A stretch of DNA of 63,975 bases, filler included, from Sanchytrium tribonematis (taxonomy: Eukaryota): the NCBI GenBank assembly GCA_018985235.1. It is 6 parts of 6 records of this genome, joined end to end, with 100 filler letters (N's around TTAATTAATTAA, not from the genome) between each part and the next. Parts side by side here need not be neighbours in the genome. Positions count along the whole stretch, not along the records: positions 1 to 31,136 come from JADGIG010000050.1; positions 31,237 to 37,773 come from JADGIG010000519.1; positions 37,874 to 44,404 come from JADGIG010000520.1; 3 more parts are not named here. One strand, 5' to 3'. The notes under the pieces were generated by a model that did no database searches, was not told the DNA's origin, and saw only the letters and a list, made by a program, of their open reading frames with translations. Made by a program: the position numbers and the translations under genes. This document shows positions 22,059 to 42,000 of this stretch, in pieces (within the stretch, counting starts at the first letter, position 1; each line of letters starts with the position of its first letter).

Positions 22059-23778
22059 ATGTACTTTACTTTTATTTTCGGGTTGACTTGTGTACCAAGT
22101 ACCTGTAATGATCAAGAAAATCCGCCTTGTATCTCTTTCAAAGCTACCCTAAGGAATTTTCCTCAACACGCAATGGAATTCGAAGCTCCATTAGGCAGTG
22201 ATTATCGAAACTATCCATTATTAAACTCTACCCTTATGGACGAGCGACCAACATTTATTCCGTCTCATTTGAGAGCCTCTTTATATTATGGAAACACAAA
22301 ATTATCAAAAAATGCGGCTGTTGTGAACTATGGAAAATTTTTATTTGATCAGTACTTTATGGATGTCCCCAGGCTAAATATCCCGCAAGTAATCAATATC
22401 AATCTTACTAAGAGAAACAACGGTTTGTACATGTACGATAGTAATGAAAATAAGCCGGTGGGATTCTTTCCCTTGGATAAGTTTGGTTATTCAGAAGAAT
22501 ATATGGGACAATTTGGACATAAATTTTGGTTTACCACCCACATCAATTATCCTTTTTATTATCGTGGCAATGAGACATTTTCATTTAGTGGTGATGATGA
22601 TTTGTTTATTTTTTTAAACAAAACATTGGTCTGTGATTTGGGCGGAATTCATCCTCGTTTGGAATGTACAATCAATTTAAACACTCTTAACCTAATGAAA
22701 AATACAAAATACTCATTTGATGTTTATCATGCAGAAAGACATTCGAGTGGTAGTAATTTTAAAGTCACGACTAGCATCCTCCCTCGAAATGTGGCACCAG
22801 TCAGTGAAGATATCCAAGTGACAGTATCTGGTCCTAGTAACAATATTATTAAACTGCCTTTATTTGATGCAAATGATGATGATATGACAGTGACCATTAA
22901 ACCACCATATCCACAATTCGGTAAAATTTTGATTGAAAACAAGACAATTGACGTTAGCTACAACGGTTCTTTACCAGCCGTATCTAGAAATACTTTAAAT
23001 TATATCGCCAATGACATTGCATTTGGATTACAAGGCTTTGACACAATTTTCTATACAATTAAAGATCATTGTGTTGAATCTCAATTATATTCTGTGGATG
23101 TCACTGTAGTTGGTACTGTTCGCACAATTGTGAAATATGCACCTATTGTTAGAGATCCAATTCAAATAATATTGGATAGAGGCGAGTTGATTTCAATTAA
23201 TATTACAGCATGGGATATGTTAAATTATACTTTATATTACTTGGATGATAGCCTTTATCGTGATTTATGGATTGAGTGTATCAACGTTGTAAATTTGAAT
23301 CAAACGACTGGGATTTTGACCGTTCAGGGTATATCTGGATCATGTAATTATACTTATCTAGTTAGCAACAAAGTATTTGATCCTCCAAGTCGCGGCAGAA
23401 TAGAATTTCTGATAAGACCACCAATCCCAGATCCACCTGCTACTCAAATTATTGAGGTTTATCAAACAGAATCTGTGGTGATTAATGTGGATGATAATCA
23501 CACAACCCGTTATTTCATCTAATGTAGTTTCTAATGTCACTGTTGGTTTTGCAGTTAGTGGAACTTTCGTACTAATAATAGCTGGTGCTTTAATAGCATG
23601 GATCGTCTATAGCAGATTTTTGTGGAGTAAATTTGAGGCTAAATGGAGAAAAGAAATTTTGAGTGCGGAAATTAAAGAAAATCCACTTTACGCGCCAATG
23701 AGCAAGGAAACATTCAATCCTTTATACGAAAGTGGCACAACCATAACAAAATCGCACCAAACTGTTGTTAATAAATAA
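22059..23778 (+). CDS. Type-I membrane protein: PA14 (fibro-slime) + Ig/cadherin-like repeats + TM + integrin-beta-like NPxY-x8-NPxY tail; join(22059..23508,23528..23778), 566 aa
   Basis: PA14 motifs FFPLD, FWFTTHI, FSFSGDDDLFIFLN, DLGGIH, YHAERH..SNF; NVAPV..DANDD and GFDTIFYTIKD Ig-like repeats. The 19-nt intron joins the two ORFs in frame. Confidence 0.85.
23509..23527 (+). other. 19-nt spliceosomal intron (GTTATTTCATCTAATGTAG)
   Basis: Removal deletes the in-frame TAA and joins the ectodomain to the TM and tail. CTAAT branch-like motif with A at -6. Confidence 0.8.
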
Positions 23779-23796
23779 CTTTAATGATGAATTTAT

Positions 23797-39312: not shown

Positions 39313-40737
39313 ATGAATAGGGATTCGGAAAAAATCAATAAACTGGTGGATCACGTCAAATATTTAACAAATTTGGTGAAAAGTCAACGAAAAATTATTC
39401 AGGAAAACAACATAACATATTTCATAAATAAAATTGACGTACTATCAAAGGAATCCAATCATCTAAGGCTTGTCAATAATAAAATTCAAGAACAGCTAAA
39501 TCAGATTACAAAATTTGTCGAAGGAGATAGCAAACTAGACAGAAAAGGATTTGCGCAGCAGCTGATTCTGTCCGAGCAACGTTACAATAAGGAAATAGAA
39601 TCTAAAGAAATTTCGCACAACGAAGAGATACAAAAATTAAAAATCAACTTTACTGATCAGATCAATGCCTTAAAAAAAAGAAATCATGAAAATCTAAACT
39701 CTTTTAAAATTGAAAGCAGCAAACAGACCCAAGAACTTTTGGCTCGACACATAGTTGAAAAATCAGAATTGGAAGAAAAATTACTTCAAGTTCAGCAAGC
39801 CTATCAGAAAGAAATTACTACGCTACAAAGCAGAAACTTGTGTAAATTAGAGGAAGTCAAACAAAAATTTGACAACAGATTAGCAGAAATACAAACTAAG
39901 CAGGAATTGCAATTATCAGAAAAAGAGAGAAAATACTCAGAAGACAATCAAAAACTGCGGGCCGATTTCCAAAGCCAAATTTCTGAAATAAGTTTAAGAA
40001 ATTCGCATGATACTTCACATTTGAAAGAAATGCACCAATCTGAATTGGCTAGACTTCAAGATTTTTTTGAACAAAAACTTGAATCTGAAAATCTGCAGAA
40101 AAACCAACACTACAACCACAAGATTCAAATGATAGAAGATGAATTAAAGGGAAGATTGAGGGAACAAGAACGGAAATATCAAATTGAAAAAGAAAATCTT
40201 ATTGCTACCAATAAAGAGATCGAACAAAAACTAGAAAGTGATATTTTGCTTCATAATACTGAGCATCAACACAGATGTAAAATACTTATGAACGAAATCA
40301 AAGACTTAAAGTCAAAGAACGTTTATTTAACTAAAGAATTAGAAAGAAAAGACGAACAAATTGACTTGTTGACTCAAAATCTGGAAAGTTCACATATTCA
40401 ATTAAATAATATTGTCAAGGAAAAACATATGATTGAATCCTCCATATTAGATCTGGAATCAAAAAACCAATCAACCCAGCAGCATTACGAGCATGCTCTT
40501 AAAATGATTGACGAAAAAGACAGGGTGGTTCAAGATGGGCAAAGTAAACTGAAGTGTTTGACTGAGCAACTGACAGAAATTAGTGCAATCAAAAAATCGT
40601 CTCATATGAGTATGAAGTCCTTCAGCGTATTCGCTGAAGATTTCGACGAGTGGGTAGAAAGCAGAGAAAAGGACACTTCAGGCAAACGCGAAGAAGTGAA
40701 CCACAATATGATTATCACAGGTATAGATATGATCTAA
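39313..40737 (+). CDS. Long coiled-coil protein of unknown function
   Basis: 474-aa E/K/Q/L heptad-rich ORF. Confidence 0.7.
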   Translation: MNRDSEKINKLVDHVKYLTNLVKSQRKIIQENNITYFINKIDVLSKESNHLRLVNNKIQEQLNQITKFVEGDSKLDRKGFAQQLILSEQRYNKEIESKEISHNEEIQKLKINFTDQINALKKRNHENLNSFKIESSKQTQELLARHIVEKSELEEKLLQVQQAYQKEITTLQSRNLCKLEEVKQKFDNRLAEIQTKQELQLSEKERKYSEDNQKLRADFQSQISEISLRNSHDTSHLKEMHQSELARLQDFFEQKLESENLQKNQHYNHKIQMIEDELKGRLREQERKYQIEKENLIATNKEIEQKLESDILLHNTEHQHRCKILMNEIKDLKSKNVYLTKELERKDEQIDLLTQNLESSHIQLNNIVKEKHMIESSILDLESKNQSTQQHYEHALKMIDEKDRVVQDGQSKLKCLTEQLTEISAIKKSSHMSMKSFSVFAEDFDEWVESREKDTSGKREEVNHNMIITGIDMI

Positions 40738-42000
40738 TGCTTCCTTTTGGATCTCTTGGTTTCTTTATCAGTAACGCAACTGGTACAAAGACATGTATCA
40801 AACATTTCACGAGATCTGTAATTGAAAACTATTTCTTCGCCGATATAAATAGTACGATTCGATTTAAATCCAATTCGTAATAATTGTGGCACTGCAATAC
40901 CATATTTTGAAGGAAACTAAATAAAATAATAGTACATATATTTGTGTTAAATTTGCCTTTTTGCAATCGTGATTGAAAAATCTAGTTATGTTTCCAAAAT
41001 AGGTAGCATCTAAAAAATAATCGGGCTGCTGGTCGTCCAATATATGTCGATCCAGAGCAAATGTGTAATAAAAATCATACTTTTTATAAAGCAATTGGCG
41101 ATGCTTTTCTATCTTGCCCCGAAAGACCTCTCCACAATATTCTCCTATATACGTGTCGGCTTTAATTCTCTTTTTTGCACGAACTCCCCATCCTCGGTCT
41201 TCAGTCTTGAATATCTCTAGATGGTCTAAAAGGCTTTTCCCTCCAAACTGAGTAGCGTACGTATTCTCACAAGCACATCCGCATTTAATCGAGCAGATTG
41301 GAATTATATCATGGGCATTTGTAAACCCACTATCTCTACAAGGACAAGAATTAGTGCATCCCATGTTGCAATCGCAACTCATGATAAGTCCTTCGTCCAA
41401 ATCAATGGATGGGTGGTAGCGCGGCTGATCTTCGAACATTAATCTTGGAAAGGGTTCTGTATCCTCAAGGTTATAGATATCAAATTTGGGGTAACAAACG
41501 TCATAATATCCCATTCCCAGTAATTCTTTGTATTTATCATTAACAATATTGGACCGCTCGAAATCATCCAAAATTTTTTGATAGTCTCCAACTTCATCAT
41601 TAGAATAATCAATTCTCAACTCAAAAAACGACCTTACAAAGTCAAGATCAATACAGAAAACACAAGCTATTAGTCTTATAAAGAAAAATTGAAAATCATA
41701 ATAATAAGCTGTGCTCTTTAGCTTATCGACAAATGTCTGGATAACATCTTGGACTTGTTTGCTTAGAGTACCCGTTTCCATTTTGTGAATCCTTCGATGT
41801 CTTAGGACTCTGAAGTTGTAAAACATATTATGTAATTCTCCAAGAATATCCATCGCTTCCTCGTCAACTTCGTCATAACAATCTTTAGTCAAAATGTGAC
41901 TGGCCAATTCGTCTGTAAGATCAAACCACATATGCAGATGGATAGGCTGCTTCAGCATGGATTTTTCATACGATTCTATTACAACTTCAGGAACTCTCAT
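40734..42000 (-). CDS. Pre-SET/SET/post-SET histone methyltransferase (SUV39/Clr4/DIM-5-like); complement join(40734..40916,40936..42000)
   Basis: Pre-SET Cys clusters, RGWGVRA, EYCGEV, GNITRFFNHDC. After the intron: RIGFKSNRTIYIGEEIVFNY and post-SET-like CLCTSC. Confidence 0.85.
40917..40935 (-). other. 19-nt spliceosomal intron (GTACTATTATTTTATTTAG)
   Basis: Phase-0 removal restores the GEE-x-x-x-x-Y SET motif and the post-SET cysteines. Confidence 0.92.

Follow-up and report, generated by a model that had tools for sequence, protein, structure and literature searches.

Four protein-coding genes in the DNA analysed here, a stretch of 63,975 nucleotides (nt) from the Sanchytrium tribonematis assembly GCA_018985235.1 (hereafter the window: six contig pieces joined by N spacers, with a GC content of 34.4%), are each broken close to the 3′ end by a 19-nt insert that carries the ends of a spliceosomal intron (Table 1). 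The genes encode a PA14 surface protein, a proteinase-K-like subtilisin, a protein for which the domain layout suggests a Dsk2/ubiquilin-like identity and a SET-domain methyltransferase, the first exon of which has its best Protein Data Bank (PDB) matches in SETMAR and Clr4. The inserts are spread over three of the contig pieces (positions 1-31136, 31237-37773 and 37874-44404). An earlier sequence-only reading of this DNA had described them as GT-AG inserts with an A at position 14 (-6) and a terminal TAG, and a direct check of the sequence confirmed all of these features in all four, along with the coordinates and strands. The donors are GTTATT, GTAATT, GTAATC and GTACTA, three of the four inserts end in TTTATTTAG, and T is also invariant at +5, -8, -5 and -3. 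A YTNAY motif, degenerate and defined post hoc, occupies positions -9 to -5 in every insert.

Table 1. Exons and candidate 19-nt introns of the four interrupted genes, in positions of the window.
Feature	Position	Strand	Evidence and remarks
PA14 (fibro-slime type) surface protein, exon 1	22059..23508	+	Pfam PA14 E 3.8e-5; homologs P0234, P0235, P0237 at 44-48%
Candidate 19-nt intron 1, phase 1	23509..23527	+	in-frame TAA inside; CTAAT, A at -6
PA14 gene, exon 2: transmembrane helix, tail with two NPLY motifs	23528..23778	+	AATAAA immediately before stop
Proteinase-K-like subtilisin, exon 1, ending at GTSMAAPHV	25354..26229	+	Pfam Peptidase_S8 E 3.5e-39; PDB matches
Candidate 19-nt intron 2, phase 0, directly after catalytic-serine motif	26230..26248	+	19 nt is the sole no-indel length against P0007
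Subtilisin, exon 2	26249..26383	+	colinear with P0007 to C-terminus; AATAAA overlaps stop
Dsk2/ubiquilin-like gene, exon 1	36327..37029	+	XPC-binding/STI1-like match E 1.4e-5
Candidate 19-nt intron 3, phase 1	37030..37048	+	acceptor fixed; donor picked on its signal and its resemblance to introns 1, 2 and 4
Dsk2-like gene, exon 2: UBA domain	37049..37194	+	Pfam UBA E 2.2e-11, profile 2-37 of 37; AATAAA overlaps stop
SET-domain (SETMAR/Clr4-like) methyltransferase gene, exon 1	40936..42057	-	Pfam SET 1-73 of 105, E 2.6e-13; start uncertain
Candidate 19-nt intron 4, phase 0	40917..40935	-	sole option keeping whole SET C-terminal part
SET gene, exon 2: SET end and Cys-rich post-SET region	40734..40916	-	Pfam SET 84-104 of 105, E 0.091

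Scripted excision of each 19-mer opens the reading frame into a conserved C-terminus in all four genes. When all GT-AG cuts of 10-120 nt reaching the same C-terminus were compared for each gene, a length of 19 nt was forced by homology in three of the four, the Dsk2-like gene being the exception. Four options reach the C-terminus of the PA14 protein and only 19 nt preserves the whole helix; the resulting second exon aligns with the membrane helix and the double-NPLY tail found in homologs from Catenaria, Coelomomyces and Amoeboaphelidium. The spliced subtilisin continues PHV-SGVAA and is colinear with the intronless relative P0007 (63% identity), and among its 14 options only 19 nt avoids an indel relative to P0007, with the 22-nt option removing a conserved V; the second exon alone had no Pfam match. 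For the SET gene there are three frame-restoring options, and only 19 nt preserves the full C-terminal part of the domain. The Dsk2-like gene has 13 options, five of which (19, 52, 55, 73 and 112 nt) use the motif-bearing acceptor in a low-complexity linker, and a homolog search returned only the query protein itself; the 19-nt length would be preferred here by analogy with the other genes. The claim of the sequence-only reading that the inserts are uniform in length holds where homology fixes both ends, but for the Dsk2-like gene the donor is open to four farther choices. The ends of the genes give a further signal. Of 32 unbroken open reading frames (ORFs), 22 carry an AATAAA between -15 and +30 relative to the stop, and the hexamer is found at none of the four read-through ends and at three of the four spliced ends; the SET gene, which has no AATAAA, overlaps with its stop the stop of a convergent gene.

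Some metagenome relatives of two of the genes are broken in the same place. A quick subtilisin tree, built from 41 rows selected among 228, groups ten subtilisins in a single clade with a Shimodaira-Hasegawa-like approximate likelihood ratio test (SH-aLRT) support of 100. Five members are intact (P0007, P0008, P0009, P0010 and P0126), while the window protein (P0006), P0011, P0012 and P0013 break right after PHV, with Val, and P0014 breaks earlier, the P0014 second site lying at about 0.7 of a full-length homolog. P0232 and P0233 duplicate the tails of P0011 and P0013 and were not counted separately; outside the clade, only two sequences have a short tail after the motif. In a quick PA14 tree (20 rows chosen from 150 matches), the window protein groups with P0234, P0235 and P0237 with a support of 100, and all four end before the membrane helix that is present in the homologs of Catenaria, Coelomomyces, a Paraphysoderma cluster and Amoeboaphelidium. 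The position is common to relatives at both of the genes for which relatives were found, as judged from the read-through tails.

The lengths of the relatives' inserts were approached by back-decoding, in which all intron starts, lengths of 10-40 and all back-translations were scored against the second exon of the window gene, a procedure that yields a best case and not DNA. P0234 decodes to 19 nt in phase 1 (score 88 against 52, 92 candidates), and P0011 to 19 nt tied with 22 nt (48 against 20, 18 candidates), the same tie seen for the control, P0006. The protein tail of P0011 forces an A at -6. For P0013, use of the same donor rules out 19 nt; with the final TAG taken as its stop, the length would be 21 nt. 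On that assumption P0014 would come to 20 nt, and both would have an A at -6 and YUNAY at -9 to -5. All of P0011, P0013, P0014 and P0234 are compatible with YTNAY when decoded from their tails. A strict 19 nt, as first proposed, would describe the window and the best decodings of P0011 and P0234, but P0013 and P0014 suggest 20-21 nt, and the range across the lineage is likely 19-21 nt.

The introns appear to be common to a lineage with 44-63% identical proteins, some members of which would have lost them, and from their shared positions they appear to be older than this species. The lineage is likely the Sanchytriomycota: the subtilisin clade includes a protein named as Sanchytrium tribonematis, P0008 (one gene family, in a quick tree), and the GC content and compactness of the window fit the published sanchytrid genomes (10.5-11.2 Mb, 34.6-36.3% GC; PMC8371127). 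In PMC8371127, proteins were predicted by an ORF finder on contigs, and introns are mentioned only in the title of a reference. It had been predicted that gene callers would miss these introns, and the read-through products of all four genes are indeed present in the public protein collection. Several European Nucleotide Archive (ENA) and JGI metagenome contigs of up to 50 kb encode close relatives (P0007-P0014, P0126 and P0232-P0237), which indicates that uncultured members of the lineage are already in public assemblies.

The PA14 proteins deserve a separate comment. A C-terminal membrane helix followed by a double-NPxY tail is found in PA14 proteins of the lineage, the Blastocladiomycota and the aphelids (P0243, P0248, P0253, P0255, P0256 and P0257). 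The arrangement of two NPxY motifs in a tail resembles integrin-beta tails, and the tail of the PA14 protein reached an E-value of only 1.6 against Pfam Integrin_b_cyt. Possibly, the PA14/NPxY proteins are an adhesion receptor family of early fungi.

We consider the four 19-nt stretches to be true introns on which the major (U2-type) spliceosome probably acts, a reading of the sequence to which we assign a probability of about 0.88. The organism would be a zoosporic fungus of reduced type, likely one of the sanchytrids, which live as parasites on algae. What lies above chance is the restored homologous protein together with the common break in relatives, and not the motif alone; the same two lines uphold the original proposal of real GT-AG micro-introns in a fungal nuclear genome. 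In length, the inserts agree with the uniform tiny-intron systems (nucleomorph, heterotrich and Mikrocytos), whose introns stay below some 22 nt and vary by only a few bases: they measure 19 nt in the window and in two relatives and probably 20-21 nt in two more, a small sample. U12-type introns have a long conserved donor, RTATCCTT, and an extended branch motif, and the four donors are without that long donor. The U at +5, the degenerate branch motif and a relative position of 0.83-0.87 set the inserts apart from microsporidian-type introns, while the GT-AG ends and the four unrelated genes, with boundaries judged by eye, set them apart from Ire1-type introns.

Several points weigh against this reading. 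Position +5 is U in all four inserts and not the usual G. The donor of the Dsk2-like gene is not fixed by homology, and cuts of 52, 55, 73 and 112 nt open its frame as well. The pattern GT-N8-YTNAYNYAG at a length of 19 was observed four times in the window against 3.8 expected from 30 Markov-simulated sequences; the four matches are exactly the four intron sites, but there is no enrichment. An invariant A at any of the 15 interior positions has a p of about 0.09, and YTNAY in register in all four has a p of about 5e-4, post hoc. A codon-model scan was weak, with the 19-mer ranked first in one gene, tied for first in one and second in one, and with the SET 19-mer outside the top three; its 613 candidates were mostly swamped by false gene fusions. 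The relatives' lengths are deduced from protein tails, with P0012, P0235 and P0237 yielding no length, and the lineage placement has as its basis a single named member of the clade and two trees of the quick kind. With only four introns, the terms 'uniform' and '3′-biased' rest on small numbers, and in-frame, stop-free introns of 18 or 21 nt would escape the scans used.

Further candidates were tried and rejected. A 19-mer at 57885-57903 (-), straddling an ORF stop and with a textbook GTAAGT donor, has a G at -6 and would add an unsupported new tail of 25 residues; the ORF at the 37236-37254 (-) candidate already terminates on AATAAA. Two in-frame stretches were set aside, 19710-19750 for being colinear with a paralog and 23344-23361 in the PA14 gene for residues that are conserved in P0234. 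The branch motif was absent from all 21 possible 5′ introns (15-30 nt), and a 64-base joint at 28432-28497 in one contig of run X1, with AA..AG ends and unknown filling, was not taken as an intron. No mid-gene breaks were found in the intact genes of the window. A further in-frame candidate is located at 59708-59728 (-).

Between intron and stop there are 248 (PA14), 132 (subtilisin), 143 (Dsk2) and 180 (SET) coding bases, which places the four introns at 0.83-0.87 of the coding length (the SET start being uncertain). Under an even spread, the chance that all four fall beyond 0.8 is 0.0016, calculated post hoc. This placement contrasts with intron-poor genomes, which usually keep 5′ introns: a 5′ bias is described for Stentor, Saccharomyces cerevisiae, the Guillardia nucleomorph and the first-described Encephalitozoon cuniculi set (PMC6349667, PMC9505925, PMC6009652).

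Under the mechanism we propose, each intron would be built from three elements: a donor reduced to GU-W-N-U, a brief spacer rich in U, and YUNAY, separated from the AG by two bases. Branching would take place at the A at -6, forming a 14-nt lariat loop with a 5-nt tail, and a constant distance from this branch point would define the 3′ splice site. The sequence-only reading had pointed to the invariant A; it is present in all four inserts but is best read as an ordinary U2-type branch point within YUNAY. Deletion bias may have shrunk the distance between donor and branch to the smallest that the spliceosome tolerates, and the four introns may be survivors of heavy intron loss. Their persistence at the 3′ end could be explained if complementary DNA (cDNA)-mediated loss spares terminal introns, more so with very short 3′ untranslated regions, where poly(A) signals overlapping the stops would leave short homology arms for cDNA recombination. 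Alternatively, 3′-end processing may assist the weak signals. The decayed reverse-transcriptase elements in the window would be a possible past source of cDNA.

A broader proposal is that sanchytrids have the shortest fungal (perhaps opisthokont-nuclear) introns, that a 19-21-nt class persists almost only in the last 130-250 coding bases and that a reduced spliceosome needs a nearby poly(A) signal; this is a tentative extension, and we would sooner expect it to fail than to hold. Should there be a lineage-wide 3′ class, it would run opposite to the 5′ bias that other intron-poor genomes show, and the published proteomes of a whole phylum would be wrong at many C-termini. Clustering at the 3′ end, if genome-wide, would allow for tests of models of cDNA-mediated loss and of the coupling of splicing with 3′-end processing. 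Gene calls that are blind to such introns create false C-termini, without the UBA domain, the post-SET region or the membrane anchor, and could distort counts of gene loss in this reduced lineage. The minimum spliceable size of an intron and the fit of a 10-14-nt lariat have so far been approached in ciliates, nucleomorphs and Mikrocytos, and a fungal case would open a direct comparison of small nuclear RNAs (snRNAs) and branching factors with the well-studied spliceosomes of its relatives, the Blastocladiomycota and yeasts, as well as a minigene test in yeast.

Among the competing explanations, the most probable, though we regard it as doubtful, is the length-measuring, remodelled spliceosome of the sequence-only reading: it would count off a fixed 19 nt between donor and acceptor, with changed U1/U6 pairing for the U at +5 and trimmed branching factors. 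It would account for the 19 nt of all four window introns and of both decodable relatives, and for a U at +5 in all four window introns together with a forced G that is never seen in relatives; further, the spliceosomes of Stentor and Mikrocytos are changed or reduced (PMC9505925, PMC10245619). Yet a 19-nt intron with the same donor is not possible for P0013, the length read for P0014 is 20 nt, and in Stentor the motifs of U1, U2 and U6 have stayed conserved although introns measure 15 nt (PMC9505925). Nor do narrow lengths call for a ruler, since deletion bias that meets a functional floor suffices to explain narrow size ranges (PMC10245619). An Rfam search of the window for snRNA found tRNA only.

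It is less probable again that the inserts are spliceosomal in origin but poorly spliced, such that the truncated read-through proteins are the main products, as in microsporidia, where short introns are spliced at less than 20% on average (PMC6349667). A premature stop near the 3′ end may escape decay, and retention costs the protein its membrane anchor, its UBA domain or its post-SET region; in the PA14 protein it could switch the product from membrane-bound to secreted.

That the breaks are assembly errors or decayed pseudogenes, with GT-AG ends by chance, is very improbable and largely refuted. GT-N15-AG is common in AT-rich DNA, and the window has frameshifted mobile elements and one unexplained gene end (41900-44185). 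A JGI metagenome pattern scan for an intron of 16-30 nt after the subtilisin motif returned nine loci, none of them relevant: eight are intact bacterial-type subtilisins with a GT-N15-AG by chance at the homologous place and one is a non-coding match. However, excision destroys the frame in the eight chance loci, the opposite of the present case, and if a single-base error were the cause, the catalytic serine motif would be followed directly by six extra residues that are absent in intronless relatives. The same two codons are also the break points in distant relatives (44-48% identity). Single-base assembly errors, which the sequence-only reading had named as one outcome that would undo it, are also not seen in the X1 contigs, which have no gaps and no other letters at sites 1, 2 and 4 (depth 18.6, 31.1 and 98.4), the three of four sites compared, with the caveat that run X1 is possibly the source of this DNA and so not independent. 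Viral contigs held 80 subtilisin loci, none with an intron-like break, and the ESM Atlas gave only leads below 0.9.

The Ire1-cut introns of HAC1/XBP1 are about 20 nt long, with CNG-CAG stem-loop boundaries, in the mRNA of a bZIP protein and not GT-AG. A non-spliceosomal repair, by Ire1/tRNA-ligase cutting or by programmed ribosomal frameshifting, is hardly credible: the similar length and the possibly slippery U-rich runs are outweighed by the GT-AG ends, the branch-like motif, the four unrelated genes and the lack of CNG-CAG boundaries, by the six extra residues that frameshifting would retain and by stops that lie in frame within the site 1 insert as well as in P0012, P0235 and P0237.

The setting of the introns is that of a compact genome. 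Pieces 1-3 and 6 hold tightly packed eukaryotic genes (VPS13, Tcf25, Coq4, Noc2, Vps10, P450 and others), and at the gene ends in these pieces the intergenic gaps are tiny and some genes overlap. The ORF sample, drawn from within the window only, comprises 36 ORFs and 43,023 coding nt; nearly all are uninterrupted, including the 2511 codons of VPS13, and the intron density in the window is about 0.09 per coding kb. Pieces 4-5 contain decayed mobile elements, some of them frameshifted: pieces of a long terminal repeat (LTR) retrotransposon pol at 45193-47666 (+), a broken Tc1/mariner transposase at 48743-49536 (+) and a reverse-transcriptase fragment at 52151-52714 (-). There are three tandem gene pairs: two membrane-protein-like ORFs at 174-2201, two colinear secreted-type paralogs at 18474-20370 and two epimerase/HIM1-like genes at 27085-28405. 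A secreted-type protein with long Asn/Gln/Gly repeats at 3619-4473 (+) and a short Met/Gly-repeat ORF at 29837-30076 (+) had no Pfam match where scanned. An intronless tRNA-Thr(UGU) is located at 25089-25161 (+), and X1 contigs with other flanks suggest several genomic copies. Along 11200-31130 and 37874-44404, X1 contigs with many substitutions and parallel contigs suggest two alleles or a mixed population. A dynamin/mitofusin-like ORF at 41900-44404 (+) is without a terminal AATAAA, with another frame open from 44028 to the contig end; neither a motif-bearing 19-nt intron nor an indel in the X1 contigs accounts for the odd gene end at 41900-44185.

Introns of 15-21 nt were already known from heterotrichs, Mikrocytos and nucleomorphs, as the sequence-only reading stated; what would be new is micro-introns in a fungal lineage. 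A literature search, with subscription journals and supplements outside its coverage, found no account of sanchytrid introns. Those described here are unusual in their 3′ placement and are likely shorter than any fungal intron so far recorded. Comparable lengths are found in the chlorarachniophyte nucleomorphs, where Bigelowiella natans has introns of 18-21 nt, about 900 in 283 genes, with no discernible branch adenosine (PMC6009652, PMC2483917). These share with the window the length class, GT-AG ends and a reduced genome, but the nucleomorph is an endosymbiont nucleus, whereas the introns of the window are rare (about 0.09 per kb), have a fixed YUNAY, lie near 3′ ends and belong to the main nucleus of a fungus. 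In Stentor coeruleus, 8806 introns of 15-16 nt are biased to the 5′ end of genes, and the putative branch A falls on base 10 in the 15-nt introns and on base 11 in those of 16 nt (PMC9505925). Here the likeness extends to AU-rich composition, GU-AG ends, a putative branch A at -6, the 5-nt tail and, in the commonest Stentor intron, a U at +5; the Stentor introns differ in being 3-4 nt shorter, 5′-biased and of an unrelated lineage. Mikrocytos mackini, with 224 introns of 16-17 nt in all (PMC10245619), is likewise a parasite with few introns in a very narrow size range, but it is Rhizarian, its intron sequence is highly conserved, its introns are confirmed by RNA and its reduced spliceosome is shown.

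Within the fungal tree, the closest systems are the reduced-genome parasites of the microsporidia and rozellids, which also have short GT-AG introns, of about 25 nt in E. cuniculi and about 30 nt in Rozella (PMC6349667). Those introns are longer, and the first-described E. cuniculi set combines an extreme 5′ bias with strong donor and branch motifs, in contrast to the 19 nt, weak donor and 3′ position seen here. Yarrowia lipolytica, also a fungus, has 2 nt between the branch motif and the AG (PMC2483917), and its branch A is at -6 by the same spacing, but its introns are long (median 204 nt) with a strong ACTAAC, whereas the introns of the window have a degenerate motif and are 19 nt long in all. 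Lastly, the ultra-short introns of myxobolids and dicyemids (median 22-27 nt; PMC13644364) are, as in this case, those of opisthokont parasites, below 30 nt and with weakened splice motifs; these are animals, however, with longer medians and many introns per genome.

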